Below, piece by piece: positions 13,068-33,527 of a stretch of DNA of 64,000 nucleotides. The translations under genes and the position numbers were made by a program. The stretch spans positions 58,520 to 122,519 of the forward strand of contig JANQMA010000011.1 of NCBI GenBank assembly GCA_028280285.1. The letters run 5' to 3'. The notes under the pieces are model-generated. The model had not been told where the DNA came from, searched no databases, and worked only from the letters and a program-made list of their open reading frames with translations. Source of the DNA: Candidatus Omnitrophota bacterium. GTDB lineage: Bacteria > Omnitrophota > Gorgyraeia > Zapsychrales > Zapsychraceae. Position 1 is the first letter of the stretch. Each line of letters opens with the position of its first letter.

Positions 13068-13076
13068 ATGCCCTCT

Positions 13077-13625: not shown

Positions 13626-13631
13626 AATTGT

Positions 13632-14564: not shown

Positions 14565-14579
14565 TCTAACCCCTTCATC

Positions 14580-15872: not shown

Positions 15873-15874
15873 GA

Positions 15875-16639
15875 TTATTCCCATCTCCAATCATGTATCC
15901 AGGGCGAATCACCAACAGCCACCAACTGTTGTTGATATAACTGCAAATCATTGACATTATCTGCTTCACACCAACGGCCATCAACACCGACCGTCTCAAT
16001 CCTTCCCTGAACCATCAAAACTTTATTTAATAATGCCGTCATATCTAATTTATCTAAATCCTCTGAAGACATTGTTTGAGTTATAGCATCAACACCCGCC
16101 CAACCTGCGGGAGTGAATTTTAGCAGTCCCATGTATTGGCCTTGAATATCGTCAACCGAACGCGGAGTCTGGCCAATTTCCGTCAACAGTCCATCATCAT
16201 CAACCTTGAACGTTTCCGCATCAGACAAAGGATCTTCAAAACGTAAACGCCACAACTTTTCCCATAAGCGGTCGTAGCTAATAACGATATCCCCCTTTGC
16301 CTGTTTAATACTTTCAATAATTTTAGGGTGATAAACTATATCCGCGTAGGAAACAATGCAGTCTTCATTCATTAAATAAGAACCGGCGCAAAACAAAGAT
16401 TGCACCATATTAGTCTGTTCCCATCTTTCGTTAACCAAAACCTCACAACCGCTGTCAACTAACATATCTTTACGGTATCCGCCAACGACAACCACGTCAT
16501 CCAACCCGGCATCCTTTAACGCGCTTATTTGCCAAGACAATAAACTTCGATCAACAAGCTTGGCTAAACACTTGGGCTTGTCTGCTGTTTCATCCCCCAT
16601 CCGGGATCCCCGTCCCGCCGCTAAAATAATGGCCTTCAT
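15875..16639 (-). CDS. Sugar/phospho-nucleotidyltransferase (candidate CTP:phosphoramidate cytidylyltransferase, Cj1416-like)
   Basis: Internal ATG gives MKAIILAAGRGSRMGDETADKPK. ATGA overlap with the upstream stop. ~254 aa. Confidence 0.75.
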   Translation of the reverse strand: MKAIILAAGRGSRMGDETADKPKCLAKLVDRSLLSWQISALKDAGLDDVVVVGGYRKDMLVDSGCEVLVNERWEQTNMVQSLFCAGSYLMNEDCIVSYADIVYHPKIIESIKQAKGDIVISYDRLWEKLWRLRFEDPLSDAETFKVDDDGLLTEIGQTPRSVDDIQGQYMGLLKFTPAGWAGVDAITQTMSSEDLDKLDMTALLNKVLMVQGRIETVGVDGRWCEADNVNDLQLYQQQLVAVGDSPWIHDWRWE

Positions 16640-17292
16640 GAGCAACTCATCTTTTCTTTAAAAATTTTGTGGAATAACCGCTGATCACAGGTTTGAAAAG
16701 GGTTATTGCGTTCCGGATGCCACATCGTCGCAAAGATTGGTAATCCCTTTACACCCATGGCCTCAACAATTTCATCTGAAGTTTGTGCCACAACATCCAA
16801 CTGCTTATCGACATCAGATGCTTTAAAACCAAAATGATGGTAGGAGTTCACCCTTATACTTTCAGATTCAAAACATGATTGAAAAGCACCGGGCGTTATA
16901 TCAACCTCGTGTTCTTTGGCGACATGCACATCCGCGTCACATTGGCTTAACTTTCCGCCAAAATAAACATGTAAGAGCTGCAAACCTCGGCAAATACCAT
17001 ATAAAGGCAACTTATTTTCAATGGCGAACTTCAATAATGTTTTCTCTGTTGCGTCACGTACTGGAGAATCTCCCACGCTATCTCCACCGGTTAAAATGAA
17101 CCCGTTTAACGCGTGTGCATTCACATAATCAAGAACCGGCTCTCCAAGATTAGGAATTAAAACCCACTTTTCCCCCTCTAATAAAAAATCAAGGCACGCG
17201 TACCAATCCCGCGCTAAAGCATCTCTTGGTTCGTTATATCCCTCCGCGTTAGATGTTCTTAGCGTAACGCCTATACGTAATTCTTTATTCAT
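16636..17292 (-). CDS. Class I glutamine amidotransferase / gamma-glutamyl hydrolase (Cj1417-like)
   Basis: 218 aa. GATase1 nucleophile elbow LPLYGICRGLQLL, and HPE near the C-terminus. Confidence 0.75.
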   Translation of the reverse strand: MNKELRIGVTLRTSNAEGYNEPRDALARDWYACLDFLLEGEKWVLIPNLGEPVLDYVNAHALNGFILTGGDSVGDSPVRDATEKTLLKFAIENKLPLYGICRGLQLLHVYFGGKLSQCDADVHVAKEHEVDITPGAFQSCFESESIRVNSYHHFGFKASDVDKQLDVVAQTSDEIVEAMGVKGLPIFATMWHPERNNPFQTCDQRLFHKIFKEKMSCS

Positions 17293-19684
17293 AAAGCGGA
17301 TTTAATGCCTTTGCCCCACAATTAAGTTCAACGGTTCCTGATTTAACTAATCTCTCAAAGGTGCCTTCTCCGCATCCAATAGCCGCCAATAATCCAAATT
17401 CCGCGCAACGGATTGCCATATGGGAATTAGCCCCGCCATATTTGGTTATTACACCCGCAATATCTTTTGTAAAAATCCAATCAAATCCAGGATCCGCGTT
17501 TTCGATACAAACAATTTTACCCGTCATATCCGCATTGGCTTTGGTCGCTGAATCAACAAAAATAACCGGCGCGACTATTGATAATGTACCGATAAAATTG
17601 GGCGCGCTGCGATGCAGAGGCAAAACATACATATCTTTTATATCGCGCAAAATATAACAAAATTTAATTTCCTTGGATAACTTAAATTTACTCTTTGCCT
17701 GCTTTATTTCCTTTTTAAAATAAGATTTTTGATCCTCATGTTTGATCGATACAGGACTATTTAATATCGATTCAATTGTCAAATGTGAAATATCTTCCCG
17801 TGACAATCCTATTTGGCCTCCCCACACAGCTAAAGACTCAAGAATATCTGAAATATTTTTGGTAAATACAAACTTCCCGTATTCACGCCCCACAATAGAC
17901 AAACGCATATACTCCAATAAATCGTCTACTGAGAAATGACCGAAATCAGATTCTTTGAGTAAATTTTCTATAGATACACGTTCTTGAGATGTCAGCAAAA
18001 ACTCATCTGTTATGACATGCGCGTGCAAACCATTAGAATGATTAAATAATTGATCCCGGTCAGAGTAACATAACGATGTAATATCATATGTTCCGGGCCG
18101 CAAGTGTCCGTAACGCTTCAGAAAGGATTCCTGTGATTTTATCTCTTTACTAACAGCTTCGATGTCCATAGCCATTTCAGAAGCAACCGTTACAATCGAA
18201 CGTTTAAATAATTTCATGCGCTCAGCGGTGATCGCCCCTCTTTTGACCATTGATCTTAGAAGTGACTCGACAATAAAAGCGTGCCTTGCGATGATCGAAA
18301 ATGGGAACGTACCTAACTCTTTGCATTCATCAATCAAATGTTGAATATGTCCCAATGTTTCCCGTTGCACCTCTTTGTTTTGATCACGTCTGTTTTGACG
18401 CTTGGCCAAATCGTCAATAGAAGTCAGCGCCATACGCAAGGAAGAAGTTTCCGCTAAATTCAAACATTGTTTGGTTAACTTGGATAATGCTGTTTTAAAT
18501 TCCTGATATTCCTGTTTTGTAAAAATATCACCGTATCGCTCATGAAAAGTTTCTTCAAATGAAAAATCAACACACGTTTGCATAACATCAAACTCTACTT
18601 TATCGTGCAGCTCGGGATGTTCGCGTAAGCGGTCTAACCACGCATTAACCATTTTTTCCGCCAAGCCACCAGTAAGGCCCTCTGGCAATAATGAATTAAA
18701 ACTATTTCTCACATCGATATAGGGCCGCCCCATTATTCCGGTCATTAACTCTACATCGGGCAGTGTAGAATACTTCATTTCCTGACGGGCTAACCGCCAT
18801 ACTGTCTGGGTAATTAATTTACGGTACAACGAAAAGGCTAACGGTTTAGGGGTGACACCTATCATCTCTGCCGGATTCCAGTCAGACATGGTTGTTAAAA
18901 TACTTTTTTCTCCAAAAATATTGTCACGTCTTTGGACATATGATTCAATTGTCCTGGTAACATCTGGTAAATTTTCCAAAACCCGCTTTTTAATTCCCTT
19001 TTCCCAGGCAGTAGTCAAACAAATCGGCCGTACTTGAAATAAATACGGTATTTCATTATGTGTGAGTCCAAACTCAATATCTAAGGCGGATTGCTCAGAT
19101 AATAATTTAACTTCTTCAACCAAATCCAAAACACTTTTGATTCGTTTAGACTGGATATACTCCTTCTGGTATTGGTGGTTTATTAAAACTGTTTTATGAA
19201 CACCCGTTCCTCCCGTGACAGAATCCGTTCTCCCTGAAAAATCGTCATAATTGATCACATAGTACGGCGCTCCGTCCTCGAGGTTATACGTCATAACAAC
19301 ACCACTGACCGCAACATCACTAATCATCGGCTGCACCAAAACCTGGTCATCCCCGTGTTCCTGATAGGAAGAAATAACCTTATCAATGGCCTTTGTAATG
19401 TCTGTTTTACTTTGCACATCAATATGTAGACAACTATGAAAAGCCCCGGCCATAGACTGCTCATGCGTATCTTCACATTGCGCACTGCTGCGTACAATTA
19501 GCTCTTTAAAGGAAATAAATTCTTTCTGAATTTGATTTAAAACCGCCTCTGATTGCGAACGCCATTGGGCGACAGTAAAATAATATAGCGGCGCAACCTG
19601 TCCTGTCTTAAGTAATGGCGCGATCCGCTCAAGCGTCTCAGCCTTTGTTCCGAATTTAAATTTTGATTTAGTGATTGAGCCCAT
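17285..19684 (-). CDS. PEP-utilizing / pyruvate-phosphate-dikinase-like kinase (candidate L-glutamine kinase, Cj1418-like)
   Basis: 799 aa. N-terminal PPDK_N ATP-grasp-like domain (LIVRSSAQCED...VLVQPMI...SGVVMTYN). C-terminal phosphohistidine mobile domain (GGANSHMAIRCAEFGLLAAIGCGEG). Confidence 0.75.
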   Translation of the reverse strand: MGSITKSKFKFGTKAETLERIAPLLKTGQVAPLYYFTVAQWRSQSEAVLNQIQKEFISFKELIVRSSAQCEDTHEQSMAGAFHSCLHIDVQSKTDITKAIDKVISSYQEHGDDQVLVQPMISDVAVSGVVMTYNLEDGAPYYVINYDDFSGRTDSVTGGTGVHKTVLINHQYQKEYIQSKRIKSVLDLVEEVKLLSEQSALDIEFGLTHNEIPYLFQVRPICLTTAWEKGIKKRVLENLPDVTRTIESYVQRRDNIFGEKSILTTMSDWNPAEMIGVTPKPLAFSLYRKLITQTVWRLARQEMKYSTLPDVELMTGIMGRPYIDVRNSFNSLLPEGLTGGLAEKMVNAWLDRLREHPELHDKVEFDVMQTCVDFSFEETFHERYGDIFTKQEYQEFKTALSKLTKQCLNLAETSSLRMALTSIDDLAKRQNRRDQNKEVQRETLGHIQHLIDECKELGTFPFSIIARHAFIVESLLRSMVKRGAITAERMKLFKRSIVTVASEMAMDIEAVSKEIKSQESFLKRYGHLRPGTYDITSLCYSDRDQLFNHSNGLHAHVITDEFLLTSQERVSIENLLKESDFGHFSVDDLLEYMRLSIVGREYGKFVFTKNISDILESLAVWGGQIGLSREDISHLTIESILNSPVSIKHEDQKSYFKKEIKQAKSKFKLSKEIKFCYILRDIKDMYVLPLHRSAPNFIGTLSIVAPVIFVDSATKANADMTGKIVCIENADPGFDWIFTKDIAGVITKYGGANSHMAIRCAEFGLLAAIGCGEGTFERLVKSGTVELNCGAKALNPLYE

Positions 19685-19690
19685 TTTAAA

Positions 19691-20758
19691 TTACTTTAAG
19701 ATTTGCGCACTTTCTTCAATTAAACTCCATGTGAGTGGACAACCTCTTTGAATAGACTGCGTTGCCTTTTTTCCTAAAATATCTTTTAAATATTTTGGCG
19801 GTAATCCGTGACCGGGACGAATAGAACGCACATTCTCAGCATTAAACTCTTCGCCTTCCGCTATATCTTTGACGGCAAAAAGAGACCTGGAAAATACCCT
19901 GGATTTTTCACCCTCTTCGGTTAACCGAAACTCTTCTTCTCCCAGGCTTTTTTCAACCTCCCGCACCAATTTAACCATTTCTTTAAATTCCTCTGGCTGC
20001 ATGGAAAAAGCAGAATCCGGCCCTCCCATGCTTCTATCCAAAATAAAATGCTTTTCAATAATACAGGCTCCAAGAGCCACAGCACCGGCGGCCACAGATG
20101 AAGTGAGTGTATGATCGGACAATCCAATCTCCACGCCTAATCTTGATTGCAATGCTTTAATCGCATTAATATTCATCTCTTCCAACGGTGCCGGATACGT
20201 CGATGTACACTTAAGAACCGCAACCTGCTTATTGCCTACTTTGTAACAAGCCGCTAATGCCTCCTCCAAGTCTTCCCAAGTAGCCACACCAGACGACATT
20301 ATGATAGGCTTACCTTTTGAGGCCGTATACTCAATCAACGGAATATCATTGATTTCACATGAAGCAATTTTATATGCCGGTACTCCGGCTGACTCCAAAA
20401 AATCAACAGAAGAATTATCAAATACCGAGGAAAACCCGATCACACCGCAATCTTTCGCATACTCAATTAACTCTTTTTGCCACTCCCAGGGAGTATAGGC
20501 TTCCTTATATAAATCATATAATGTGCGGCCATCCCAAAGCGTACCGTGATTGAGTTTAAAATAATCGGTATCCGCGTCTATTGTGATGGTATCAGGCGTA
20601 TACGTTTGCAATTTAACCGCATCAGCACCGCTATCCGCCATTGCCTTAATCGTCTTCTTAGCCAACTCTTTGTCATGCAAATGATTAGCCGATAATTCAG
20701 CAATAATAAAAGCCGGATACCCCGCTCCAACACTTCTACCTTCTATGTCAAAACTCAT
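19691..20758 (-). CDS. NeuB-family nonulosonic acid synthase (N-acetylneuraminate/pseudaminate/legionaminate synthase type) with C-terminal SAF domain
   Basis: 355 aa. AELSANH, DAVKLQTY and SDHT motifs, plus a SAF-like C-terminus. Confidence 0.85.
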   Translation of the reverse strand: MSFDIEGRSVGAGYPAFIIAELSANHLHDKELAKKTIKAMADSGADAVKLQTYTPDTITIDADTDYFKLNHGTLWDGRTLYDLYKEAYTPWEWQKELIEYAKDCGVIGFSSVFDNSSVDFLESAGVPAYKIASCEINDIPLIEYTASKGKPIIMSSGVATWEDLEEALAACYKVGNKQVAVLKCTSTYPAPLEEMNINAIKALQSRLGVEIGLSDHTLTSSVAAGAVALGACIIEKHFILDRSMGGPDSAFSMQPEEFKEMVKLVREVEKSLGEEEFRLTEEGEKSRVFSRSLFAVKDIAEGEEFNAENVRSIRPGHGLPPKYLKDILGKKATQSIQRGCPLTWSLIEESAQILK

Positions 20759-21442
20759 TTAATTGTCCTTTAAAATAATTGGTAGAATTTTATCCAAAGC
20801 GTTAACAACGTAATCCGCCGGCACAGGATTTGCCTGGCTTTCCGGATAAAACATTCTCTGTCCATTTTGTTCTAATTGAATACTCATCATTCCCATTACT
20901 TTTGGTGCATGAAAATCTTTATAAGGGTTATCGCCGACATATGCGGCCACTTCAGCATCTATATCAAATTCATTTAAAATTTGCTCATAAGGCACCTGCG
21001 AAGGCTTGGCATTCTCTCCTTCTAATTCATCGGTATATACAATACTTTGCATGTGATCTTCTAAACCCAATACCTTTACTTTATTGCGCTGGACGCTCGC
21101 CATTCCGTCAGTAATCAACCCTATCATGCAACTCTTGTTATGCAATTCAGATAAAATTTCTTCGACGCCATCAAATAAATTGATATTTGGCAAATGTGTT
21201 CTATAGGCAGTTACCATCTTTTTTACAAAACGCTCTTGATCCAAATCATGTTGAGCGCATAACACATTAAATACCTTGCCGCGGCCGTTTTGCTCTACAA
21301 TAGAAACCAATTGATCAAATATGCGTTTGTCATCCAATCCACATTCTTTTGTTACAAATTTAGCAACAGCCCGAAAACCGCTTAAAACATAATCGTATTC
21401 GCGATACAATGTGTCGTCTAAATCAAATATAACAGCCTTCAC
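20759..21442 (-). CDS. HAD-superfamily hydrolase
   Basis: 227 aa. MKAVIFDLDDTLY (DxD HAD motif I). GTG start. Confidence 0.7.
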   Translation of the reverse strand: MKAVIFDLDDTLYREYDYVLSGFRAVAKFVTKECGLDDKRIFDQLVSIVEQNGRGKVFNVLCAQHDLDQERFVKKMVTAYRTHLPNINLFDGVEEILSELHNKSCMIGLITDGMASVQRNKVKVLGLEDHMQSIVYTDELEGENAKPSQVPYEQILNEFDIDAEVAAYVGDNPYKDFHAPKVMGMMSIQLEQNGQRMFYPESQANPVPADYVVNALDKILPIILKDN

Positions 21443-22425
21443 AAAACAGCACCCTCTACGACGGAATCACCTTCTATAAAAAAATCATCTGTATAACGCA
21501 GCATCACAACATCTTCTTTATATTGTGATAGATGACCATCAAGTTTTTGACCGGATAATAACTTAATTAAAAACCGGGGCGTATTAACTCCTGCGGCAAA
21601 TCCTAAAGACGCGCCACCGCCAAAACGCGGATTAATTTCTAAAATTTGGATTACTTCACCAACTTTAATACATTGAAATGTCGTATGCCCTATCAAACCT
21701 AACCGCCCGGCTAAGGCAGTCACCTCACTGACCATTTTTTCGTCCTTAACCGTCCGCCCTTTATAAGACTCCCCACTGACAACTTCGATACGCTCTCTTG
21801 GAACAGCAGAAACAACACGCCCTTCAAAATCCGCAAATACATCGATGGTATATTCCGTCCCCTCGATAAACTCCTGGATAACGGCATCGTCTATGTAGCT
21901 TGTAAAAAAATCGAGTTCTTTTTCATTGTTTACCTTAAAAATATTTTCCGATCCGCTACCAAATCTGGATTTAACAATATAGGGAAATTTTAAATCCACC
22001 CCCTGAAGGTCTTTAGATAAATATGTTACCGGAGCATTAAAGCCATTTTCTTTTAAGAAATGAAAAAATAAATGCTTATCATTACAAATATTAACGGCCT
22101 CCGGCGGGGAAACCATTACCTGAATATTCTCTTTTTCAAACAGGGATTTATTTTCAGAGAATATGATCAATTCAGCGTCACGCGTCGGCACAATAAGACT
22201 GATCTTTTCTTTTTTGCATATATCCAAAATGACCGGCAAAAAATCCTTATCGGATGAGCGCGGAACGAGATAATAACGGTCACCGGCAATAAACCCGGCA
22301 CTCAATGGATCAATATCGACCGTGATTACTGACCCGGTGTTTTTTTCTTGTTGTAATGCTCCTAAAAAAGCCTTAACCAGCCATACCTTACGCGAAACAC
22401 TCGTAATTAATACATTGACATCCAT
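21439..22425 (-). CDS. ATP-grasp domain ligase
   Basis: 328 aa. ATP-grasp pattern (KSRFGSGSENIFKV, EINPRFGGG). Confidence 0.6.
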   Translation of the reverse strand: MDVNVLITSVSRKVWLVKAFLGALQQEKNTGSVITVDIDPLSAGFIAGDRYYLVPRSSDKDFLPVILDICKKEKISLIVPTRDAELIIFSENKSLFEKENIQVMVSPPEAVNICNDKHLFFHFLKENGFNAPVTYLSKDLQGVDLKFPYIVKSRFGSGSENIFKVNNEKELDFFTSYIDDAVIQEFIEGTEYTIDVFADFEGRVVSAVPRERIEVVSGESYKGRTVKDEKMVSEVTALAGRLGLIGHTTFQCIKVGEVIQILEINPRFGGGASLGFAAGVNTPRFLIKLLSGQKLDGHLSQYKEDVVMLRYTDDFFIEGDSVVEGAVL

Positions 22426-23015
22426 TATTGTTCCTGCTCTTGTTGCAACATCTCTTTCACTCTATTTTTCGTGCGCACCCAATCTTCTTCTAAGAAATCA
22501 TGGACAAATGAATCACAAAACGCGCCATTAATCACCACATGATCTTTCATAACGCCTCCCTGCTTCATTCCAAACTCTTCCATCACACTTAAAGTAAAAT
22601 GACGTATAGCATATGTTTCACTGTGCAGCTTATGCAGTTTAAGCTCTTCAAATAAATACGTGCACATCATATAAAGAACACTGAGAAAATCTATTCGATA
22701 AACAGGCCGGTCCTGCCTCCTCTTGGGAGAAACCAGAAACGACAACTCTGCCCGTTTATGGTCATAATCTATATTGGTTAAACCACAGTAACCGATAAAT
22801 TCATCATTGTGATCCAGTAAAGAAAATATAACCTGATTCTGATCTTCCTGTATCTTTTTAAACCACCTGTCCTGATCTTCATCGGTCAGTGGTTGTTTTT
22901 GACGAAGAACATCGATTTGCGCGTTCCGCCATTCTTTGAGAGTAGACAAATACTCCCTTTTCATTGATGAAAGACTTCGTCCACAAATAGAATCTATTTT
23001 GCTTTCAACCAGCAT
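22425..23015 (-). CDS. GNAT-family N-acetyltransferase (PseH-like)
   Basis: 196 aa. Acetyl-CoA-binding-like segment IGYCGLTNIDYDHKRAELSFLV. Confidence 0.5.
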   Translation of the reverse strand: MLVESKIDSICGRSLSSMKREYLSTLKEWRNAQIDVLRQKQPLTDEDQDRWFKKIQEDQNQVIFSLLDHNDEFIGYCGLTNIDYDHKRAELSFLVSPKRRQDRPVYRIDFLSVLYMMCTYLFEELKLHKLHSETYAIRHFTLSVMEEFGMKQGGVMKDHVVINGAFCDSFVHDFLEEDWVRTKNRVKEMLQQEQEQ

Positions 23016-23050: not shown

Positions 23051-23797
23051 TTAGGCCGCTATTTCTGCCGTGTTCGCAATTGTCTGCTGTTGTAGTTTAT
23101 CTAAATAATATTGTGCCAAAAAGAAATCATCCCAATTATCAATTTCAATTGAAAAATAATCATCTTTTTGTATGGTGGGCAAGACCTTCTCACCTAAAAA
23201 GACATGAGCTCTTCTAATCCCTCTTGTATCATAGAGATTTTGGGCTAGCACTGCTGCAACCGAACCATCCAACATATACCTGTCGGGAAATTCTTGTCGC
23301 CTAATAGCTTTAACATCTTTGACAAGAGGTTGTAAAAATCCTTGTTCATCAACCACTTTCATTAACTCAGGAGCTTGTGTAACGGGATGGCAAGTAACAG
23401 ACGCGTGCGCGTCGGAGTGGACGAGCTTTTCCACCACTTCATCAATCAATCCGTCTGCTCTAAAAGGAACATTCGCCTGCATCAAAACGACAATGTCCGT
23501 TTCATAATTTTCTTCCTTCTTTAAAGTCTCAACAACATGAAGCAAGGCCTCCTCAATAGGCGAATCATCTAAAGCCAACTCACTTGGGCGCATAATGATT
23601 TCAACATCATAGTGTTGACGCACGACATCCGCAATTTCTTCACTGTCGGTTGAAACAATAACTTTGTCTAAAGTTTTTGCTTTTTGTGCCGCTTCAATGG
23701 TATGTCCAATAACAGGCTTGCCACCTAAATCTAAGATGTTTTTTGATTTAACTCCCTTAGACCCACCACGCGCAGGTATAACACCAATAATATTCAT
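23051..23797 (-). CDS. Acylneuraminate cytidylyltransferase family (CMP-nonulosonic acid synthetase)
   Basis: 248 aa. MNIIGVIPARGGSKGVKSKN signature. Confidence 0.8.
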   Translation of the reverse strand: MNIIGVIPARGGSKGVKSKNILDLGGKPVIGHTIEAAQKAKTLDKVIVSTDSEEIADVVRQHYDVEIIMRPSELALDDSPIEEALLHVVETLKKEENYETDIVVLMQANVPFRADGLIDEVVEKLVHSDAHASVTCHPVTQAPELMKVVDEQGFLQPLVKDVKAIRRQEFPDRYMLDGSVAAVLAQNLYDTRGIRRAHVFLGEKVLPTIQKDDYFSIEIDNWDDFFLAQYYLDKLQQQTIANTAEIAA

Positions 23798-23809: not shown

Positions 23810-25543
23810 CTATAAATTCGCTGTAGATGCCCCCCGCACAGCTGTTTCTTTATCTTTTCTTCCCGGATGCCGTTTTGTGTTTTGAGCGCCCAACTCATTT
23901 ATCGCCCACCATGAAAGCTCAACAATCTCTTCATCAGGCAGATCGCTAAAGTTCGTCCTAACGGCGTCGCCTTGTTCGCCTAAACGTAGGAAATATTGTT
24001 CAACCATATCATCATCCGCCGGGGCCACAACGCCGGTGACCGCTTTGGTAATAAGTCCCTTTTCCATGGCCAAGTCCCAGAAACTTGTGCCAGGGTATGC
24101 TGTTACAAAAAAGAACACTTCAGGCTTAAGCCCGATTTCTTTACACACCTCAACCGTTTCGGCAACTGTCTGGCGTGTTTCGCCTGGAGAACCAATCATA
24201 AAGGAACAGTCCGCATACCCGAGAACCCTTTGTGTCTCCCGCACAGCAATTTTGATTTTTTCCTGTGTTTGCCCGGATTTATCAATGCTTTTTAAAATGG
24301 TTGGACTTGCCGTTTCAACACCATAACCTGCCTGACGCATTCCTACCTCACGCCCTAATTCCAGAATATTAGGCCGGCCCTGCTTTTTCGCACGGACGAC
24401 ATCATCCGCAATAATATTGGTCCTGCACGCGCCTCCCCAAGTCACATCAAGCCCTGTTTTTTTACGTTGATTCTTAAGGGCCTCACAAAATTCCATAGCC
24501 CAACGATAATCTGTAAAAAGAAGATCATCTAAGAAATGCATATACCCTGCATCGTATCTGTCATGCAGATATTGCATTTCATCAACAATTTCCTGAGGAG
24601 ATCTTAAACGATACGTTTTACCCAAGTAAGAGGCATAGCAATAATCACATGCCTTTGCCGCATACGGACAACCACGTGAAGCCAAAAGCTCCACCGAGTA
24701 GGTATCACACGTACTCTTTCCGTCACTCCACTTATTTTCCCAGTTTAAATGACCAAGAGGATTCTGTTTATAAATTTCATCAATAGCAAAACGTGAACGA
24801 AGCGGCCACGGCAGTGTATCAAGACCATCCCATCTTGTCTTAAAACCGGTACGCTCGCCATTATTTCTAATTTCCCACTCACCTTTTTTTATTTCATGTT
24901 TATAGACAACGCCGGCACATCCTTCCAGTGAAACACCTTCTTCTAAGCGATGCAAAAGTTCTGATGTTGTCATCTCTCCTTCTTTATTAACGGCGATATC
25001 AATGGGAAGCATTTTGACCATAAATTCCGGCATACAGGAAGAAATACCCCCACCAAGAACAATGGGTATTTCTGGAAATACTTTCTTACAGTAGGTAGTA
25101 ATCTGTTTAATGCGGGCGTACTGCGGTATAATCCCACCAATCATGATCACATCAGGATGATAATGATTAAATTTTTCATCAATTTTCGCCTCAACCCACT
25201 TTGACATCTCCTCCGGGGTTTTATCCATAGGCTCCTTACGCAAAGCATTCAAATCCAGTGTTTCGACATAGTGACCATCCATAGCCGCTACGGAACAGAC
25301 ATAAGCCTGGCCTAAAGGAAATATATTGGGGTAGGACCACTCACGGATCGGCGCATTGATCATAAGGACCTTAAGTCCTTTATTCCGTAGAGGAAAGAGA
25401 CCCTCAGAATCATCTGTTGTAATCCGCGGAGCTTCAGGGAACTCATTCCCGCCTAAGGCATTAAACCGCTGGTAAAAGCGCTCCGGCGCCTTAGGCACAT
25501 TGATATTAACGAACGCGTCATTTTCTTTGGTTTTTGTAGTCAT
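23810..25543 (-). CDS. Cobalamin(B12)-binding radical SAM enzyme (non-canonical Cys spacing)
   Basis: 577 aa. N-terminal B12-binding-like region (KVLMINAPIREWSYPNIFPLGQAYV). Cys cluster GCPYAAKACDYC (CX6CX2C). Confidence 0.7.
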   Translation of the reverse strand: MTTKTKENDAFVNINVPKAPERFYQRFNALGGNEFPEAPRITTDDSEGLFPLRNKGLKVLMINAPIREWSYPNIFPLGQAYVCSVAAMDGHYVETLDLNALRKEPMDKTPEEMSKWVEAKIDEKFNHYHPDVIMIGGIIPQYARIKQITTYCKKVFPEIPIVLGGGISSCMPEFMVKMLPIDIAVNKEGEMTTSELLHRLEEGVSLEGCAGVVYKHEIKKGEWEIRNNGERTGFKTRWDGLDTLPWPLRSRFAIDEIYKQNPLGHLNWENKWSDGKSTCDTYSVELLASRGCPYAAKACDYCYASYLGKTYRLRSPQEIVDEMQYLHDRYDAGYMHFLDDLLFTDYRWAMEFCEALKNQRKKTGLDVTWGGACRTNIIADDVVRAKKQGRPNILELGREVGMRQAGYGVETASPTILKSIDKSGQTQEKIKIAVRETQRVLGYADCSFMIGSPGETRQTVAETVEVCKEIGLKPEVFFFVTAYPGTSFWDLAMEKGLITKAVTGVVAPADDDMVEQYFLRLGEQGDAVRTNFSDLPDEEIVELSWWAINELGAQNTKRHPGRKDKETAVRGASTANL

Positions 25544-25725: not shown

Positions 25726-26928
25726 TTAAACAACCACCGCAATAACAGCATCGATAACGCGTTTAATTTCTTCTGCTTTCATAGAAGGAAACAATGGAAT
25801 GGTGAGCGCCGTATCATAATATTTTTCTGCTTCTGGGAAATCACCGCGCTTAAACCCGAACTTGTTTTGATAGTATGGCAATAAATGCAATGGAATATAA
25901 TGCACATGGACACCTATTTGCATTGCCCTGAGCTCTTCAAAGATTTCCCGGCGTGTCTTTTGTACTTTATCAAGATCAATTCTCAACATATACAGATGCC
26001 AGGCGCTTTGACGGTCAGCCTCCTGAAACGGCGTGATTAAAGCTTCAACCGGACTAAACGCTTCATTATATTGTTCGATAATTTCACGACGGCATTCATT
26101 AAACTTATCAAGTTTTCTTAGCTGGCTTAATCCCAGCGAACACTGAATATCGGTAATACGATAATTATAGCCAAGTTCTTGCATCTCATAATACCAGGGC
26201 GCACGATTAGCAAACCGCTTACCGCGATTAAAGGCGTTCTCATTATCAAAGGCCTGCTCTTCTAAAGTCATCGCATCATTGGCATTGGTGATGCCATGCG
26301 TGCGAAACAGCTTTAGCTTTTCATACAATGCTTCATCATTGGTTACAATCATACCGCCTTCCCCCATCGCGACATGCTTAACCGGATGAAACGAAAAAAT
26401 GGTCATATCAGCTAAAGACCCTACCGGTTTTCCCTTATAAGTAGCGCCGATGGCATGCGCGCCATCTTCAATCACAATCAAATTATGCTTCTTGGCAATA
26501 GCATTGATCTCATCCATATCACATGGCTGACCGGTGAAATCGACTGGAATGATCGCTTTCGTTTTTTCAGTAATAACCGCCTCTAACTTTTGAGGATCCA
26601 TACAATAGGTATCCGGACGGATATCACAGAACTTAACATCAGCCCCGAGAAACAACGCGCAATTACCACTCGCCGCAAACGTAATAGGAGCGGTGATGAT
26701 CTCATCGCCTGCTTTCACACCGGCGGCGTAACACGCGCAATGAAGCGCCGCCGTTCCGGTAGCAACGGCAACAGCGTATTTGGCTCCAACCTTTTCGGCC
26801 ACTGCCTTTTCAAACTCGGCAATTTTAGGACCCTGCGTTAACCAGTTACTTTTAAGTGTTTCGATGACAGCATTAATGTCGTCGTCATCGATCGTCTGTT
26901 TGCCGTAAGGAATAAAATCAGTGCTCAT
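25726..26928 (-). CDS. DegT/DnrJ/EryC1/StrS-family PLP-dependent aminotransferase (PseC/LegC-like)
   Basis: 400 aa. FSFHPVKHVAMGEGG PLP-lysine motif. Confidence 0.85.
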   Translation of the reverse strand: MSTDFIPYGKQTIDDDDINAVIETLKSNWLTQGPKIAEFEKAVAEKVGAKYAVAVATGTAALHCACYAAGVKAGDEIITAPITFAASGNCALFLGADVKFCDIRPDTYCMDPQKLEAVITEKTKAIIPVDFTGQPCDMDEINAIAKKHNLIVIEDGAHAIGATYKGKPVGSLADMTIFSFHPVKHVAMGEGGMIVTNDEALYEKLKLFRTHGITNANDAMTLEEQAFDNENAFNRGKRFANRAPWYYEMQELGYNYRITDIQCSLGLSQLRKLDKFNECRREIIEQYNEAFSPVEALITPFQEADRQSAWHLYMLRIDLDKVQKTRREIFEELRAMQIGVHVHYIPLHLLPYYQNKFGFKRGDFPEAEKYYDTALTIPLFPSMKAEEIKRVIDAVIAVVV

Positions 26929-28385: not shown

Positions 28386-28829
28386 TTATCTTTCCTCAAC
28401 ACTCCATGGATCCCAGTAATAGGCATCAAAACGGTAGTCATCATCCAGACTTTCCTCGAGTGATGAAGTTGAAAAAAACATGATTTTTGTATCAGATTGT
28501 AATGTCTTAAACCCGTTAGCATACCCTGCCGGTATTTTTAAAACTCCGGGTTTTTTTTCAGTAAGAACAAAACGTGCCACCTCTAAATCTTTCCCCGGAT
28601 TATCCCAATTATCAATTTTGACTGCCGCCACAATCGCTGCACCTGAAACAACATATACATATTTCATTTCATTTTTATGCCCATGCCAGGCACGGATAAA
28701 TTCCGCTCTATGATTGCTGACCGTATAAAACCGGCGGATCGTGCGTAAATCAAAGTCATTGCAAAATTGAATCTGACCGCGGTCATCAACAGCTAATCCT
28801 CCCGCAATTAGTTCTACTTGATCACTCAT
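28386..28829 (-). CDS. Cupin-fold NDP-sugar isomerase/epimerase (FdtA/WxcM C-terminal-like 3,4-ketoisomerase)
   Basis: 147 aa. RAWHGHKNEMKYVYVVSG cupin His motif typical of FdtA/QdtA-like enzymes. Confidence 0.6.
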   Translation of the reverse strand: MSDQVELIAGGLAVDDRGQIQFCNDFDLRTIRRFYTVSNHRAEFIRAWHGHKNEMKYVYVVSGAAIVAAVKIDNWDNPGKDLEVARFVLTEKKPGVLKIPAGYANGFKTLQSDTKIMFFSTSSLEESLDDDYRFDAYYWDPWSVEER

Positions 28830-28853: not shown

Positions 28854-29690
28854 TTACGATGCAATATGTGCCCTTAATTTATTGGCAACAGGAACTTCCT
28901 TTTCATGTATCCCTAAAACACCGTCTCCCATCGCGAGCTCAATTTTGCGTACAGCCCCAACCAACCGGCGAAATCCTTCCGGCTCAACCGAAGCAGACTG
29001 ATCAGAGCCATACATCGACCGTGAAAGCGTAATGTGCCGTTCAAGCGAGGTAATCCCCATAGCCGCCGCCGCATAAGATACAGCCAGTCCAACTTCATGC
29101 CCGCTGTAGCCAACAGCGCAGTCATATCTTTGACGCAATGTGTTGATGCAATTTAAATTCGCGTCCGTATCTTCCATCGGATAGGTCGACATGCAGTGCA
29201 TAAGTTCATAAGGACACTTGGCATCCTGGAAAATCTCCACCGCCGCATCGATCATAGCCACATCTGTCATGCCTGTGGAAATAAAGGTATGTCTTCCTTC
29301 GGAGGCCACCTCTTTAAGGAAGTTTTTATCGACAATCATCGCCGAGGCAATCTTGTTATACTTGCAATTATATTGAGCCAAAAACTTTTGGCTTTCTATA
29401 TCCCAGGCGGACGCGAACCAATCAATTCCCTTTTCTTTACAATACCGGTCGACTTCATCATATTCGGCCTTGCCAAACTCGAGCCCTTCTTTTTGTTCGC
29501 GCTGCGTTGTCCCCCAAGGGCTTTCCCGGGGAGAATCAAGCATCTCTTTGGTGTAGACAAGGTCAATGGTCCTTTTTTGAAACTTAACCGCATCAGCTCC
29601 GGCATCTTTGGCCACATCGATCAGCTTCTTTGCGGTTTCAATATCACCATTATGATTAATCCCTATTTCTGCAATGACATAAATGGACAT
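28854..29690 (-). CDS. NeuB-family (ulosonic acid / sugar-phosphate aldolase-type) synthase lacking the SAF domain
   Basis: 278 aa. IAEIGINHNGD and DAVKFQK motifs, no C-terminal SAF extension. Good AGGAG Shine-Dalgarno upstream. Confidence 0.75.
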   Translation of the reverse strand: MSIYVIAEIGINHNGDIETAKKLIDVAKDAGADAVKFQKRTIDLVYTKEMLDSPRESPWGTTQREQKEGLEFGKAEYDEVDRYCKEKGIDWFASAWDIESQKFLAQYNCKYNKIASAMIVDKNFLKEVASEGRHTFISTGMTDVAMIDAAVEIFQDAKCPYELMHCMSTYPMEDTDANLNCINTLRQRYDCAVGYSGHEVGLAVSYAAAAMGITSLERHITLSRSMYGSDQSASVEPEGFRRLVGAVRKIELAMGDGVLGIHEKEVPVANKLRAHIAS

Positions 29691-29698
29691 AACATCTC

Positions 29699-30181
29699 CT
29701 AGTTCTTTTTGATTAATAAATTGTCATATAGTTTACGGATAACCCCATCCCCGCCATTTTGGGGAACAATCACTTGCGCTATATCCAAAATTGTTTGGCT
29801 AGCATCTTGCGGCGCAACAGGATAACCGACAGCTTTCATCACTTCAAGATCATTAATGTCGTTACCGACATACAAAACATCATTAAGATCAACACCGCGT
29901 TCTTGGCAATATTTTGTAAGAACGCTTAATTTGTCTTCAACACCGTGAATCACATCAATGGCCAGCTTATTGGCACGGACCTTTACAACCGCATTGGTTT
30001 CTGTCGAAATGATGACTTGGGGTTTGTCCATCTTCTTAATCAGTGAAATCGCCAGTCCGTCACCACGATGACAAAAAACCGCCTCGGTGCCGTTCTGGTC
30101 AACCAAAACCCGGTTATCCGTTAACACACCGTCAAAATCGTAAACAATCAACTCTATTTTTTCTAAATCTAACTCTTTCAT
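29699..30181 (-). CDS. KdsC-like HAD phosphatase (ulosonic acid-phosphate phosphatase)
   Basis: 160 aa. IVYDFDGVLTDN motif I and overall KdsC/YrbI family pattern. Confidence 0.8.
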   Translation of the reverse strand: MKELDLEKIELIVYDFDGVLTDNRVLVDQNGTEAVFCHRGDGLAISLIKKMDKPQVIISTETNAVVKVRANKLAIDVIHGVEDKLSVLTKYCQERGVDLNDVLYVGNDINDLEVMKAVGYPVAPQDASQTILDIAQVIVPQNGGDGVIRKLYDNLLIKKN

Positions 30182-30186
30182 AACAA

Positions 30187-30909
30187 CTATAGTTTATGCG
30201 CATAAAATGTCATGATATTCCCCGGAAAAGGCGGCGACATTTCTGTATTATCAAACAATCGCATGAGATTTTCTTTTGTAAAATGACGTGTCTCAAAAAA
30301 AGGATAATCGACATGCTCTACTTCAAACCCATGATCACGTAACAAACGGAACACAGACTCATTAGAAAACAGACTGATATGTGTCTGATCGTGCAGCATC
30401 CTGAAATGCTCACCAAAGTGTCTGGCCAAATGGCAATCAAAATCCGGCGTTCCCAACACAATTTTTCCACCTGGCTTCATCACACGATTAATTTCCTTAA
30501 TAATAGATACAGGGTCCTCTAAATGTTCCAAAACGTGCATCAGTACAACGACATCAAAAGAATCACTTTCATATTTGGCATCATGTAATGGCCCTATAAA
30601 TATCTCAGCCCACTTCTTGGCTTGCTCGCCGGCAAATTTTGAAATTTCGACCCCATGTTTTTCCCAGTCATCATTAATCCCGGAAAGAAAAAAGCCAATC
30701 CCACAACCCACATCCAATATCCGCCCTGGGGGTAAGGCATTAATGTAGGCTAAATCATTTTTGACATCTTCCAGAATCCTGTCCCTCTCGTCCGCACGTT
30801 TGCGCTCCATTCCGTCAGGATCAATTGTCACTTTCCAATAATTTTCTTCAAAGACAGACTCTTTGCTTGTTTCTCTTCTAACAAAATATTTATCCGGGCT
30901 TACAAACAT
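30187..30909 (-). CDS. Class I SAM-dependent methyltransferase
   Basis: 240 aa. ILDVGCGIGFF SAM-binding motif. Confidence 0.65.
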   Translation of the reverse strand: MFVSPDKYFVRRETSKESVFEENYWKVTIDPDGMERKRADERDRILEDVKNDLAYINALPPGRILDVGCGIGFFLSGINDDWEKHGVEISKFAGEQAKKWAEIFIGPLHDAKYESDSFDVVVLMHVLEHLEDPVSIIKEINRVMKPGGKIVLGTPDFDCHLARHFGEHFRMLHDQTHISLFSNESVFRLLRDHGFEVEHVDYPFFETRHFTKENLMRLFDNTEMSPPFPGNIMTFYAHKL

Positions 30910-30919
30910 TTATACTCCT

Positions 30920-31609
30920 TTACCTAACATTGTTTTCCATTAATGCTGTTAATTTTTGAAACAGCTCAACATCTTGGGGCTCATCAATTTGAAATGAGTT
31001 TAGTGCCCCCATTTGATAGTGTGTAATCTTACCACCTAAGCGGTTATTTTGCTCCATTAAAATTTCCGGTCTGAAAATATAGATAGAACCATTTTCTATA
31101 AAATCTTCAGGGCAATCTTGCCTGCGCATACGCGCGTTCTTATCATAATTGAGCGGCTCAATGCCTCCGTTATTTTCCCTCCATAAAAATCCATGCACCA
31201 GACATGACGAAAACAGTGAATCGGCATTCTCTTCTATAATATGGTCAATCGCATTGGCTATATCATTTTCTTCTCTCAGCGGAGATGTTGCCTGCAAGAA
31301 AACGACCCAATCGGGGCTGTAATCTTCTTTAGCCCGGTAAACTTCAAGTGTGTGTTTAAGCGCAGATTCCGATGTTGCAAAATCATCACTCAATTCAGCC
31401 GGACGATCAATCACTTCTGCCCCCGCCTTAATAGAAACATTTTTAATATCCTCATTATCCGTTGAAACGACAACGCGATTAATCCTGGCCGTAGTTAGCG
31501 CCTGCTCAATAGAATGCACAATGAGCGGCTTACCGTTAAAAGGAATCAAATTTTTGCGTGGAATCCCTTTTGATCCACCGCGCGCTGGAATAATAGCCAT
31601 TATTTCCAT
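30920..31609 (-). CDS. Acylneuraminate/KDO-type cytidylyltransferase (second CMP-ulosonic acid synthetase)
   Basis: MEIMAIIPARGGSKGIPRKN signature. Start is ambiguous: in-frame ATGs at 31600, 31609 and 31618, and the ORF-track GTG at 31639 would overlap the upstream gene. Confidence 0.8.
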   Translation of the reverse strand: MEIMAIIPARGGSKGIPRKNLIPFNGKPLIVHSIEQALTTARINRVVVSTDNEDIKNVSIKAGAEVIDRPAELSDDFATSESALKHTLEVYRAKEDYSPDWVVFLQATSPLREENDIANAIDHIIEENADSLFSSCLVHGFLWRENNGGIEPLNYDKNARMRRQDCPEDFIENGSIYIFRPEILMEQNNRLGGKITHYQMGALNSFQIDEPQDVELFQKLTALMENNVR

Positions 31610-31619
31610 AGACAGCATC

Positions 31620-33527
31620 CTAAACACATACTTTTTCACTCACAGAGTCACGTGAAGCATCGATTGTCTTTTCATCACTTAAAAAGGAAATAACCCGGTT
31701 AAGCCCACTTTTCTCATCACAAAAAGGGTCGACTATCCTTTTAATATAATTCTCTTTAAATGCAACAAACTCTTCGTCTACTTCTTCTCTTAACCAGAAC
31801 GCAACACAATCAAACAACTCATCGCGACTAAACGCGGATAAATGCGGAATATCCTTAATCCAAATATCTAAAGAGTGATAATACTCTTCCGGAGCATAAT
31901 AAATAGCCTTCACGCCACCCGAAATCGCCTCAAACCCGGCTGATGAGGTAAAAAACGAGATGACCAGGTCGGATACCGCCATAATTTCTTGTGTTGTGTA
32001 AGCAGACGTTTTCTTGTCTATACATATAACCCTTTCCATGTGTTTTAACTTTTTGACAGCTAAACTAATAGGGCTACCCTCGGCATACTTATCAAAAGAA
32101 GACTTCATTTTATAAATCAAAAAATAATCATCATTAGCATCAATGAGTTGAGCAATATCTTCCAACCTCCTTGCCGATTGTGCTTCATCTGTCCAAGAAA
32201 ACCGCCCCATGGGTGCATCACACAAACAAATAATTTTTTTATTTTCCGGAATATTTAACTGCTGCCGCAGTTTATGACGCGCTTCCTTAATAGACGATAA
32301 TTCTTTAACAAAAGAAGATGTTACTGTTCCCACGTCAACCTTTTTCCCAAATGCATCTTGATTGGCTTCGAAAAGCCTTTGCGATAAACGGTTAGATAAC
32401 AGCACATTATGCGGTAAATAGCTATAATAAGTTATGTATAAGTCCGCCAACACCTTATCACTAAAAGGAAAAAACGACGTTGATAAATAAAGGAACGAAT
32501 TATGAGAACCGTTCAACTGCTGTATCATAATACTGTTACTGCTTCCCGGCTCCTGCACGTATAAAAAATGATTTACAGAATACTGTTCAAAAAAAGAAAA
32601 CCAAAGTATCTTTTGCCTCAATGTTTTTATATAAGACAGGAGAAAAATAATATTTTTATTTTTTAGAGATAAAAGCCTCAAATTCAAAGCAAATAACCGA
32701 TGTAACAAGCCGCCCAAATAACGAAACACATTACATTGATTAAGCAGCTCATCTAAGGTATAGCAATTTTTATACTTTACTTTTAACGCATTTAACTGAG
32801 GTTCGTTTATTTTTGTGTTCACAACAAATAAACTCTCCTCATCCTTGATAGTTTCGTCCACCTTTAATTTATCAATGAATCTTTCGCAAACCGATTTGGG
32901 AAAGGTCCCCCATATATTAATGGCGTAATAAAAGTTCTGTTTTCTCGACGCTTTAGCCATAGTCATTTTAAAAATAACATATAGCGGATAAACCAAAGCA
33001 GCAGCCAGATATTTCAATTGATTTCCTCGCGCTTCACGTTTCAAGCGTGAAACACAGCTTGGCGCGATATGAAACCATTTTGGCATGCTTTGCTTCCCGG
33101 CCAACAGAGTATATAATCTATACGGAAAATTTTGCGCAGGCACTAGTTCAACATGATCACATCCGTATTTTTCTCTGAATTTTTTAACAAATATAATCAT
33201 AAGCGTGATTTCTTTAAGATGGAGAATTAAATCTTTTTTCAAGCATAACGCAGAGTTGGAATGCCCCAATAAATCCTTATAGAGGCTTATTTCATCTTCG
33301 GAAAAATAAAAATCAAAAACCTCCTCTATCTTTTTTCCTGCCTCGATATCCGAGGAAAATAAATCAAAGCCGCTTATAAAATCACCGGCAAGCTTGTGTC
33401 CGTTTGTCAAAGAGCCTTCGAAATAAAAAACATCATCATATTGCCTGCACAACCGCTCATGCGTTTGATCAGCATTATAAATTAACAGTGTCTTTGTTTT
33501 TTTGCTGTCCGGCATCCTGCACCTCAT
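31620..33527 (-). CDS. Large TagF-like putative transferase (paralogue of 10119..12038)
   Basis: 635 aa. C-terminal SDLVISFFTSSAGFEAI resembles the TagF D-x-L-I-x-D-Y-S-S motif. Similar length and motif spacing to the ORF at 10119..12038. Confidence 0.4.
   Translation of the reverse strand: MRCRMPDSKKTKTLLIYNADQTHERLCRQYDDVFYFEGSLTNGHKLAGDFISGFDLFSSDIEAGKKIEEVFDFYFSEDEISLYKDLLGHSNSALCLKKDLILHLKEITLMIIFVKKFREKYGCDHVELVPAQNFPYRLYTLLAGKQSMPKWFHIAPSCVSRLKREARGNQLKYLAAALVYPLYVIFKMTMAKASRKQNFYYAINIWGTFPKSVCERFIDKLKVDETIKDEESLFVVNTKINEPQLNALKVKYKNCYTLDELLNQCNVFRYLGGLLHRLFALNLRLLSLKNKNIIFLLSYIKTLRQKILWFSFFEQYSVNHFLYVQEPGSSNSIMIQQLNGSHNSFLYLSTSFFPFSDKVLADLYITYYSYLPHNVLLSNRLSQRLFEANQDAFGKKVDVGTVTSSFVKELSSIKEARHKLRQQLNIPENKKIICLCDAPMGRFSWTDEAQSARRLEDIAQLIDANDDYFLIYKMKSSFDKYAEGSPISLAVKKLKHMERVICIDKKTSAYTTQEIMAVSDLVISFFTSSAGFEAISGGVKAIYYAPEEYYHSLDIWIKDIPHLSAFSRDELFDCVAFWLREEVDEEFVAFKENYIKRIVDPFCDEKSGLNRVISFLSDEKTIDASRDSVSEKVCV

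Follow-up and report, generated by a model that had tools for sequence, protein, structure and literature searches.

A gene on the minus strand of a 64,000-nucleotide stretch of DNA from a Candidatus Omnitrophota bacterium (assembly GCA_028280285.1, contig JANQMA010000011.1, positions 58,520 to 122,519; hereafter the window) is predicted to encode a functional class B (cobalamin-domain) radical S-adenosylmethionine (SAM) enzyme that would perform an extra tailoring step in a pseudaminic acid (Pse)-type nonulosonic acid pathway, a proposal that we consider evenly poised. The most likely role, in which we place middling confidence, would be cobalamin-dependent C-methylation of the pseudaminic acid backbone. 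The protein belongs to a long clade in which the cysteines of the predicted iron-sulfur cluster are spaced CX6CX2C, and its more distant paralogues form a short clade with the canonical CX3CX2C motif. Together they appear to make up a very large uncharacterized family within Pse-type operons across much of the uncultured tree, and no curated family covers the enzyme among the Pfam and NCBIfam models.

Nonulosonic acids (pseudaminic and legionaminic acids and related sugars) cover flagella, S-layers, capsules and lipopolysaccharide, where they shape phage and immune recognition, and their known diversity consists of stereochemistry and of N- and O-substituents that are introduced by conventional enzymes. 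A conserved B12-type radical SAM enzyme in these operons implies an undescribed and chemically harder modification of the carbon skeleton that lies outside current pathway schemes. If both clades C-methylate such sugars, a possibility that we raise only tentatively below, this would be the first radical, cobalamin-dependent step in the biosynthesis of sialic-acid-like sugars, and it would extend over more than 15 phyla, including Candidate Phyla Radiation (CPR) bacteria and DPANN archaea, and to predicted viral contigs. We regard the pathway association as a more interesting lead than the spacing of the motif.

The radical SAM protein and its cluster motif

The gene had been described in a sequence-only reading as a 577-residue open reading frame (ORF) at 23810-25543; the coordinates and length are correct, and the ORF list and translation assign it to the minus strand, with many stops interrupting the plus-strand reading. 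Its start codon is the ATG at 25543, with a Shine-Dalgarno-like GGGGGA seven bases to the 5' side, and the 182-nt spacer between it and the upstream pseC gene is simply AT-rich and contains this Shine-Dalgarno sequence. A cobalamin or SAM riboswitch was sought 5' of the gene, and Rfam returned zero matches across the entire window. The gene and the elements of its product are as follows.

23810-25543, minus strand: B12-binding-domain radical SAM gene, 577 aa (ORF list; PF02310 and PF04055 both over their gathering scores)
24956-25324, minus strand: B12-binding (Rossmann-like) domain, residues 74-196 (PF02310, 39.8 bits against a cut-off of 32.1, E 4.7e-10)
24149-24679, minus strand: radical SAM core domain, residues 289-465 (PF04055, 49 bits against a gathering score of 29.5, E 1e-12)
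24638-24670, minus strand: cluster loop C292-PYAAKA-C299-DY-C302, with a three-residue insertion between Cys1 and Cys2 (translation and alignment)

The B12-binding-like N-terminus and the radical SAM core, the former claimed and the latter left to be checked when the sequence alone was read, are thus both borne out by family models. Both the long and the short clade keep the GG motif of the B12 domain (G164-G165) without exception. G408 and E410 of the GVE(T/S) SAM-binding motif and E455 of FMIGSPGE are invariant. In HMMER alignments, YGVETAS stands opposite YGIESGS of MgmA and FMIGSPGET opposite FLIGLPRET of AprD4. A DxHxxG motif, read for by eye, is absent from the protein, as it is from most class B enzymes. 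Relative to the window protein, the short paralogues lack a 56-residue N-terminal extension, a C-terminal helical region, 13 residues inserted in the B12 domain and the three-residue insertion in the cluster loop. They are about 39% identical to it, and at 43 positions all long-clade sequences and no fewer than 95% of the short-clade ones have the residue of the window protein.

Searching NCBIfam gave 21 matches, nearly all to B12-radical SAM families, led by the ladderane-lipid radical SAM family (TIGR04072, 101 bits against a cut-off of 360), BchE (99 bits) and HpnJ (94 bits). The cut-offs of these families range from 251 to 775 bits and none was approached. No NCBIfam cut-off was reached for any of the named class B equivalogs (ladderane radical SAM, BchE, HpnJ, ApyD, BzaD, PhpK, HpnR, AprD4, MgmA and TsrM), and because every match falls far under its curated cut-off the protein belongs to no named equivalog. 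The NCBIfam models of the Pse families did not match it either.

An AlphaFold2 model built from a 30-sequence alignment (predicted template-modeling score 0.82, mean predicted local distance difference test (pLDDT) 77.7) shows a Rossmann-like strand/helix pattern over residues 58-202, followed by a beta/alpha barrel segment (partial TIM barrel) over residues 282-480. When this model was compared with the PDB using Foldseek, all solved cobalamin-type radical SAM enzymes ranked first, from TsrM (E 2.5e-19) through OxsB, AprD4, CysS and MgmA to TokK (about 1e-11), and the generic barrels LIAS, BioB, MqnE, PylB and HemN came after them; the query TM-scores of the top matches are about 0.5-0.58 and the identity is just 14-19%. 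The methylases TsrM, TokK, CysS and MgmA, as well as OxsB, have the same architecture of a Rossmann-like B12 domain and a partial TIM-barrel radical SAM domain, although their substrates (tryptophan, a carbapenem, a peptide glutamine and a nucleotide) are unrelated to nonulosonic acids and their spacing, as the alignments show for TokK and MgmA, is CX3CX2C rather than CX6CX2C. Against PDB sequences, the best match of the single protein is AprD4 (6fd2, E 6e-7), whereas a profile search found TokK, MgmA and OxsB at E 6.5e-7 to 2.5e-5, and methylases were not separated from non-methylases.

The region 24638-24673 of the window (minus strand) translates to GCPYAAKACDYC, that is, C292-x6-C299-x2-C302. 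This had been put forward as the only candidate triad, with the caveat that a canonical motif might have been missed; the protein contains 12 cysteines, CxxxCxxC occurs nowhere in it, and C292, C299 and C302 form its sole triad. A MAFFT alignment places them column for column with the canonical triad of the sister clade and the paralogues. These three are the only cysteines kept without exception in a comparison of 30 proteins of the long clade, the sister protein, 26 short paralogues and 9 paralogues of other clades, and we consider them the probable ligands of the [4Fe-4S] cluster, on a loop that follows the first barrel strand in the model. C152, C373, C446 and C467, which every long-clade sequence keeps, were considered as ligands of an auxiliary Fe-S cluster, but this was rejected because the sister and paralogous clades conserve none of them.

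A search of 5.8 billion proteins gave 761 clusters at E <= 1e-10. The best 120 homologues, which were inspected, align over about 97% of the length at 63-71% identity, and their sources are metagenomes and metagenome-assembled genomes of many phyla. The pattern G-C-P-Y-[AG]-x-x-[AS]-C-[DE]-Y-C is present in all but two of them, the exceptions being one protein in which glycine replaces the second cysteine (P0094) and one with an intein directly before the third (P0115). Among GTDB species representatives, CX6 is found in 31/31 full-length orthologues and CX3 in 35/35 paralogues. The spacing is therefore neither chance nor a sequencing error, given its conservation in 118 of the 120 homologues and in every one of these orthologues.

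When 1.84 billion representatives at 50% identity were searched exhaustively with HMMER, the family's own intein-bearing representative came first (67%), followed by P0122 (52%, full length) and then by proteins of at most 40% identity, family fragments aside; the canonical CX3CX2C is present in 134 of 150 sequences comprising P0122 and more distant relatives. The alignment has a clean three-column gap between Cys1 and Cys2 in P0122 and all paralogues (CPY---xCxYC against CPYAAKACDYC). On the alignments, the CX6CX2C motif goes back to three residues that were inserted recently into the canonical CX3CX2C loop in a single clade, the sister of which (50-54% identity) still has the canonical motif. 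This makes the clade a natural experiment, in which relatives of 50-54% identity differ by a clean three-residue loop insertion and swaps could probe the effect of Cys1-Cys2 spacing.

Expanded Cys1-Cys2 spacing has precedents in QueE (CX14CX2C) and HmdB (CX5CX2C). In the superfamily as cataloged by RadicalSAM.org, the Cys1-Cys2 variants are CX4, CX5, CX6, CX7, CX8, CX9 and CX11, the only CX6CX2C entry is DUF5131 (Megacluster-5-2), and the B12-binding subgroup is Megacluster-2-1 (PMC9477430). QueE, HmdB, DUF5131 and the others resemble the present clade in having extra residues between Cys1 and Cys2 with CX2C kept, but unlike it none of the listed variants falls in Megacluster-2-1. As the superfamily is known to tolerate such insertions, the motif alone is of modest novelty. 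No description of CX6CX2C in a B12-type enzyme came up in a full-text literature search, which is no proof, as most subscription journals lie outside its coverage.

Three relatives carry inteins that split the cluster motif, and each time a cluster cysteine is the +1 extein nucleophile. In the long clade (P0115/P0121) the intein precedes Cys3 (...ACDY / AV...SHN / CYAAYLG), in one paralogue (P0131) it precedes Cys2 (GCPFN / CLRGDT...VHN / CFFC), and in another (P0192) Cys3 again (GCPRRCRF / CLSGDT...SHN / C). Insertion directly before Cys2 or Cys3 is as expected if the cluster motif is functionally essential.

A shared slot in nonulosonic acid operons

All genes between about 7.9 kb and 35.8 kb of the window lie on the minus strand. 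Those surrounding the radical SAM gene are given below in the order of transcription.

28386-28829, minus strand: RmlC-like cupin ORF of 147 aa at the head of the block; it has no NCBIfam match of its own and clusters (family f25) with a 146-aa PF00908 gene found at the same place in loci L001 and L006
26938-28374, minus strand: CBS-domain and short-chain dehydrogenase/reductase (SDR) protein resembling sugar-nucleotide 4,6-dehydratases (PseB/LegB role; Pfam CBS and Epimerase; NCBIfam RmlB, GalE and LegB below threshold)
25726-26928, minus strand: PseC, UDP-4-amino-4,6-dideoxy-N-acetyl-beta-L-altrosamine transaminase of the DegT family, directly upstream of the radical SAM gene (TIGR03588, 515 bits against 423.5)
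23051-23797, minus strand: CMP-nonulosonate (PseF-like) cytidylyltransferase, starting 12 nt after the radical SAM stop codon (TIGR03584, 102 bits, under 205.7)
22425-23015, minus strand: PseH-like GNAT N-acetyltransferase (TIGR03585, 45.5 bits, under 93.1)
21439-22425, minus strand: ATP-grasp ligase, possibly for N-acyl or aminoacyl decoration (PF02655, PF15632, PF21360; NF009405, 289 bits, under cut-off)
20759-21442, minus strand: HAD-family hydrolase (TIGR02253, 95 bits, under cut-off)
19691-20758, minus strand: PseI, pseudaminic acid synthase (TIGR03586, 476 bits against a cut-off of 340)

The flanking genes proposed from the sequence alone, a DegT aminotransferase and a CMP-nonulosonate synthetase, are accordingly found as PseC upstream and as a synthetase-like gene downstream, the latter scoring under the PseF cut-off. 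The 477-aa architecture that joins a CBS domain to the SDR also occurs in L001.

We recovered 68 loci from GTDB species representatives by radical SAM homology alone, using an alignment-based scan of the genome collection; scanning with patterns taken from the single protein had given zero matches. Gene context was compared both by tblastn with the window proteins and by all-against-all clustering of the locus ORFs, with concordant outcomes. Orthologues (59-73% identity) occur in Planctomycetes, Omnitrophota, Methylomirabilota/Rokubacteria, Nitrospiria, Acidobacteria/Terriglobia, Chloroflexota, Alpha-, Gamma- and Deltaproteobacteria, Verrucomicrobiota, Sericytochromatia, the cyanobacterium Lusitaniella coriacea (strain LEGE 07167, loci L004/L011; the sole carrier found that is in culture), CPR bacteria and a Pacearchaeota archaeon; that of an uncultured Planctomycetales metagenome-assembled genome (L005) is 71% identical. 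The short paralogues (34-39% identity, about 455 aa, CPYxCIYC) have a similar taxonomic spread that includes a Methanoregulaceae archaeon and a Brocadiaceae bacterium. In sequence databases the long clade amounts to hundreds of 90%-identity clusters, and a short-clade query returned 3790 clusters at E <= 1e-30.

One operon slot is shared by the long CX6 and short canonical clades in about 60 loci, which represent more than 15 phyla, CPR bacteria and DPANN archaea among them, and the placement of the gene in a nonulosonic acid block, first made from the window alone, is kept in about 60 independent loci. In both sets the dominant layout begins with an SDR dehydratase, PseC and the radical SAM gene, continues with either a CMP-synthetase or a Gfo/Idh/MocA oxidoreductase, an SpsF-type cytidylyltransferase and a class-III aminotransferase, and ends with PseG, PseH in some cases, and NeuB/PseI. 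Precomputed Pfam labels for the Omnitrophota and Lusitaniella contigs agree with this layout. When loci of at least 10 kb are considered, PseC, NeuB or a CMP-synthetase lies within 10 kb of the radical SAM gene in 35/35 orthologue loci and 19/20 paralogue loci, and homologues of the dehydratase, PseC, PseG, PseI and the cytidylyltransferase are each present in 60-80%. PseC is the commonest upstream neighbor, with the radical SAM gene directly after it in about 23 of about 55 scored loci, and a CMP-synthetase the commonest downstream neighbor (about 22 loci); a Gfo oxidoreductase takes that place in about 17.

Since most loci keep homologues of most canonical Pse enzymes, the radical SAM enzyme would be an added step and not a replacement. 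Which genes decorate the amino groups varies between loci (GNAT; ATP-grasp; acetimidoyl; formyltransferase paired with a PIG-L deacetylase; amidotransferase paired with HisH/HisF-like proteins) while the radical SAM gene stays, which suggests that its target is most likely the conserved sugar core and not a side chain. A Planctomycetia locus (L046) has a short canonical-motif enzyme in the radical SAM slot of a cluster homologous to that of the window, with homology that includes PseF (58%) and extends beyond the Pse genes to sulfotransferase-like (52%), APS-kinase-like (62%) and Gln-kinase-like (36%) proteins. Because this locus holds the short form in a window-like cluster, the two clades look functionally interchangeable.

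Several variations on the layout were seen. In 17 loci (for example L011, L036, L037, L049, L053 and L058) the radical SAM gene is followed by the Gfo/Idh/MocA oxidoreductase, the SpsF-type cytidylyltransferase and the class-III (GSA-like) aminotransferase, the last two being sometimes fused, and this gene content suggests that an additional amino group may be introduced on the nonulosonic acid or a precursor. Two or three B12-type radical SAM paralogues stand side by side in L055, L056, L057, L059, L060, L064, L066, L032 and L039 (in L066, rSAM[564] beside rSAM[458]), which hints at successive radical modifications.

The canonical sister clade (GCPYSCDYC or GCFYRCDFC) also occurs on two contigs that IMG/VR predicts to be viral. 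One (L074, IMGVR_UViG_2811995091_000190) has the radical SAM gene beside NeuB, a PseB-type dehydratase, a Gfo oxidoreductase, a cytidylyltransferase and a class-III aminotransferase, and the other (L075, IMGVR_UViG_3300025122_005621) has it beside NeuB and PseC- and PseH-like genes. On a short Logan contig (L073, SRR33452761), a sister-clade gene is accompanied by an HNH endonuclease and many small ORFs, with just a GNAT close to it.

Proposed C-methylation and its alternatives

Most characterized radical SAM enzymes with a cobalamin domain are methyltransferases; GenK and GenD1 methylate carbinol or aminosugar carbons, and the substrate of Fom3 is CMP-activated, having been produced by a neighboring cytidylyltransferase. 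The sequence-only reading had suggested C-methylation or epimerization of a nonulosonic acid precursor. We favor methylation because of this bias in the architecture and because of these precedents on aminosugar carbons and on a CMP-activated substrate. GenK, GenD1 and Fom3 all methylate unactivated sp3 carbons, and the pairing of Fom3 with a cytidylyltransferase is analogous to that of the radical SAM gene with PseF; they differ in having canonical motifs and in belonging to pathways that make antibiotics and not cell-surface nonulosonic acids.

In the proposed reaction, SAM at the unique iron of the C292/C299/C302 cluster would be reductively cleaved to a 5'-deoxyadenosyl radical, which would abstract a hydrogen atom from a carbon of the UDP-4-amino-4,6-dideoxy-hexosamine intermediate, of Pse or of CMP-Pse. 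The substrate radical would then take a methyl group from methylcobalamin, a second SAM would re-methylate the cobalamin, and the outcome would be an ulosonic acid with a C-methyl group and, formally, ten carbons.

Mass spectrometry has revealed unexplained 'higher-carbon' (C10-marker) ulosonic acids to which no enzyme has been assigned, and one of the two studies found CMP-activated C10 forms in Magnetospirillum gryphiswaldense (PMC8157484; bioRxiv 10.64898/2026.04.20.719630). The ions that mark chain length in the bioRxiv study have m/z 297.09 for C9 and 311.10 for C10. A C-methylating enzyme in Pse operons would explain such acids, and the present gene is a concrete candidate for them. We put forward only tentatively the wider possibility that the long CX6CX2C and short canonical clades are the missing C-methylating enzymes for pseudaminic- and legionaminic-type sugars, creating C10 CMP-ulosonic acids. 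In the full-text literature search, no paper connected a radical SAM enzyme or a cobalamin enzyme with the biosynthesis of pseudaminic, legionaminic or other nonulosonic acids, again with most subscription journals outside its coverage and hence no proof. The radical SAM genes mentioned for Campylobacter fetus glycosylation loci are of the MoaA/SPASM type and not the B12 type.

Several observations weigh against C-methylation or against the pathway as we have drawn it. AprD4 shares the domain architecture without using cobalamin, and no sequence signature separates users from non-users; many carriers of the gene are CPR bacteria or DPANN archaea, whose small genomes are generally thought to depend on scavenged B12. 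The highest NCBIfam scores, all far under their cut-offs, go to non-methylating members (ladderane radical SAM, BchE and HpnJ). No Magnetospirillum protein is among the best 120 matches listed, either for alphaproteobacterial orthologue and Brocadiaceae paralogue queries or in the search with the window protein. The cluster loop is the part of the structural model with the lowest confidence (pLDDT below 50 at residues 296-305), which is as expected in a model without cofactor. Finally, tblastn found no homologue of the UDP-sugar hydrolase PseG in the window, which may mean that the pathway departs from the textbook one; PseG is present in 41/55 related loci of at least 10 kb. With no PseG detected, and with a CBS-domain SDR and an RmlC-like cupin standing where a typical PseB would be expected, the window may depart from the textbook Pse pathway in its early steps.

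Other chemistry on the carbon skeleton without methyl transfer, which we think unlikely, would be epimerization at an unactivated carbon, giving a new stereoisomer of a 5,7-diamino nonulosonic acid, or else an OxsB- or HpnJ-like rearrangement or ring contraction. The top NCBIfam similarities include BchE and HpnJ, which are not methyltransferases, HpnJ rearranges a ring derived from N-acetylglucosamine, OxsB is among the best structural matches, and the many known stereoisomers of these sugars are compatible with extra epimerases. These similarities, however, are far under the cut-offs and no better than those to methylases. Radical SAM epimerases are not known to use a B12 domain, and since only the triad cysteines are conserved across clades there is no conserved thiol that could donate a hydrogen atom in the way of an epimerase.

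A radical lyase resembling DesII or AprD4 is decidedly improbable. Such an enzyme would deaminate or dehydrate the amino-alcohol made by PseC to a keto-deoxy sugar, and the B12-like domain would be structural only. The order of aminotransferase and radical SAM gene mirrors that of DesI and DesII in desosamine biosynthesis, where the substrate is a 4-amino-4,6-dideoxy sugar nucleotide, and in the 17 variant loci the Gfo/Idh/MocA oxidoreductase and class-III aminotransferase that follow the radical SAM gene could process a keto product; this pair, however, is absent from the window. DesII has no B12 domain, in contrast to the present protein, and no family named for DesII is among the 21 NCBIfam matches, the content of that library for DesII being unchecked. 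AprD4, a radical SAM 1,2-diol dehydratase of apramycin biosynthesis, resembles the window protein in that it has a B12-like N-terminal domain, acts on an aminosugar, gives the best single-sequence match in the PDB and also has a non-canonical triad. That triad, though, is GCPYPCRFYC (CX3CX3C), where the change lies after Cys2 rather than before it, the NCBIfam model of AprD4 scores 43 bits against a cut-off of 500, and TokK and MgmA, both methylases, outrank AprD4 when the family profile is used. The intermediates of the Pse pathway also have no vicinal diol. Strong conservation of B12-domain residues in both clades speaks against a purely structural role for that domain, and we disfavor a lyase because genes for N-acyl transfer, which needs an intact 4-amino group, persist downstream in the window and many other loci (PseH-like, ATP-grasp, formyltransferase and amidotransferase).

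There is also a slim prospect that the enzyme acts elsewhere, on an N-acyl side chain, another sugar of the glycan or a glycosylated protein, and is merely co-located with the Pse genes. The window does hold a long glycan island with many sugar genes, in which a second B12-type radical SAM gene stands beside a different dehydratase/aminotransferase pair, and enzymes of the TokK/ThnK type build alkyl side chains. The recurrent slot after PseC and before a CMP-synthetase or Gfo oxidoreductase, together with the operon-like 12-nt spacing to PseF, argues against mere co-location, as does the constancy of the radical SAM gene between loci whose side-chain genes vary. That the protein is an inactive relic whose altered spacing destroyed the cluster site, as the departure from CX3CX2C and the poorly modeled loop might suggest, is very unlikely, almost negligibly so, because orthologues 57-84% identical across bacteria and archaea keep the triad and SAM motifs invariant, a cysteine is lost in just 1/120 homologues (P0094), and active radical SAM families, with QueE and HmdB counted beside the cataloged variants (PMC9477430), span CX4 to CX14.

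The surrounding glycan island

Two genes for B12-radical SAM enzymes lie in the glycan island, along with at least five for SAM methyltransferases. As the sequence-only reading had implied in calling the gene at 23810-25543 the second of its kind, another lies at 4780-6732 (minus strand); it encodes 650 aa with the canonical motif CVNKCNYC, and its best NCBIfam match is rSAM_ocin_1 (125 bits, under cut-off). It is flanked on the same strand by a 4,6-dehydratase-like SDR (6862-7893) and a DegT aminotransferase (3580-4704), so that the placement of a radical SAM gene beside a dehydratase and an aminotransferase occurs twice in the island.

Downstream of PseI, the genes at 12078-19684 (minus strand) look like an O-methyl-phosphoramidate-type pathway comparable to Campylobacter Cj1415-Cj1418:

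17285-19684, minus strand: Gln-kinase-like PEP-utilizing protein (NF004508, 915 bits)
16636-17292, minus strand: glutamine amidotransferase (GATase) resembling gamma-glutamyl-CDP-amidate hydrolase
15875-16645, minus strand: nucleoside triphosphate (NTP) transferase
14580-15890 and 12078-13067, minus strand: two sulfotransferase-fold proteins, which could be the transferases of the phosphoramidate-type pathway
13632-14564, minus strand: SAM methyltransferase
13077-13625, minus strand: APS-kinase-like kinase

A phosphoramidate-type module also follows the Pse genes in L001/L006 and L046. Upstream of the Pse block, at 28854-31639 (minus strand), lies a second set of ulosonic acid genes, made up of a 278-aa NeuB-like synthase that lacks the C-terminal SAF region, a phosphatase of the KDN-9-P/KdsC type, a SAM methyltransferase and another CMP-synthetase; after this set come a 635-aa protein that matches nothing in NCBIfam or Pfam and an ABC exporter resembling MsbA. 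A methylenetetrahydrofolate reductase gene (39809-40690, plus strand; PF02219, 325 bits) stands at the island's edge and may be linked to methyl supply.

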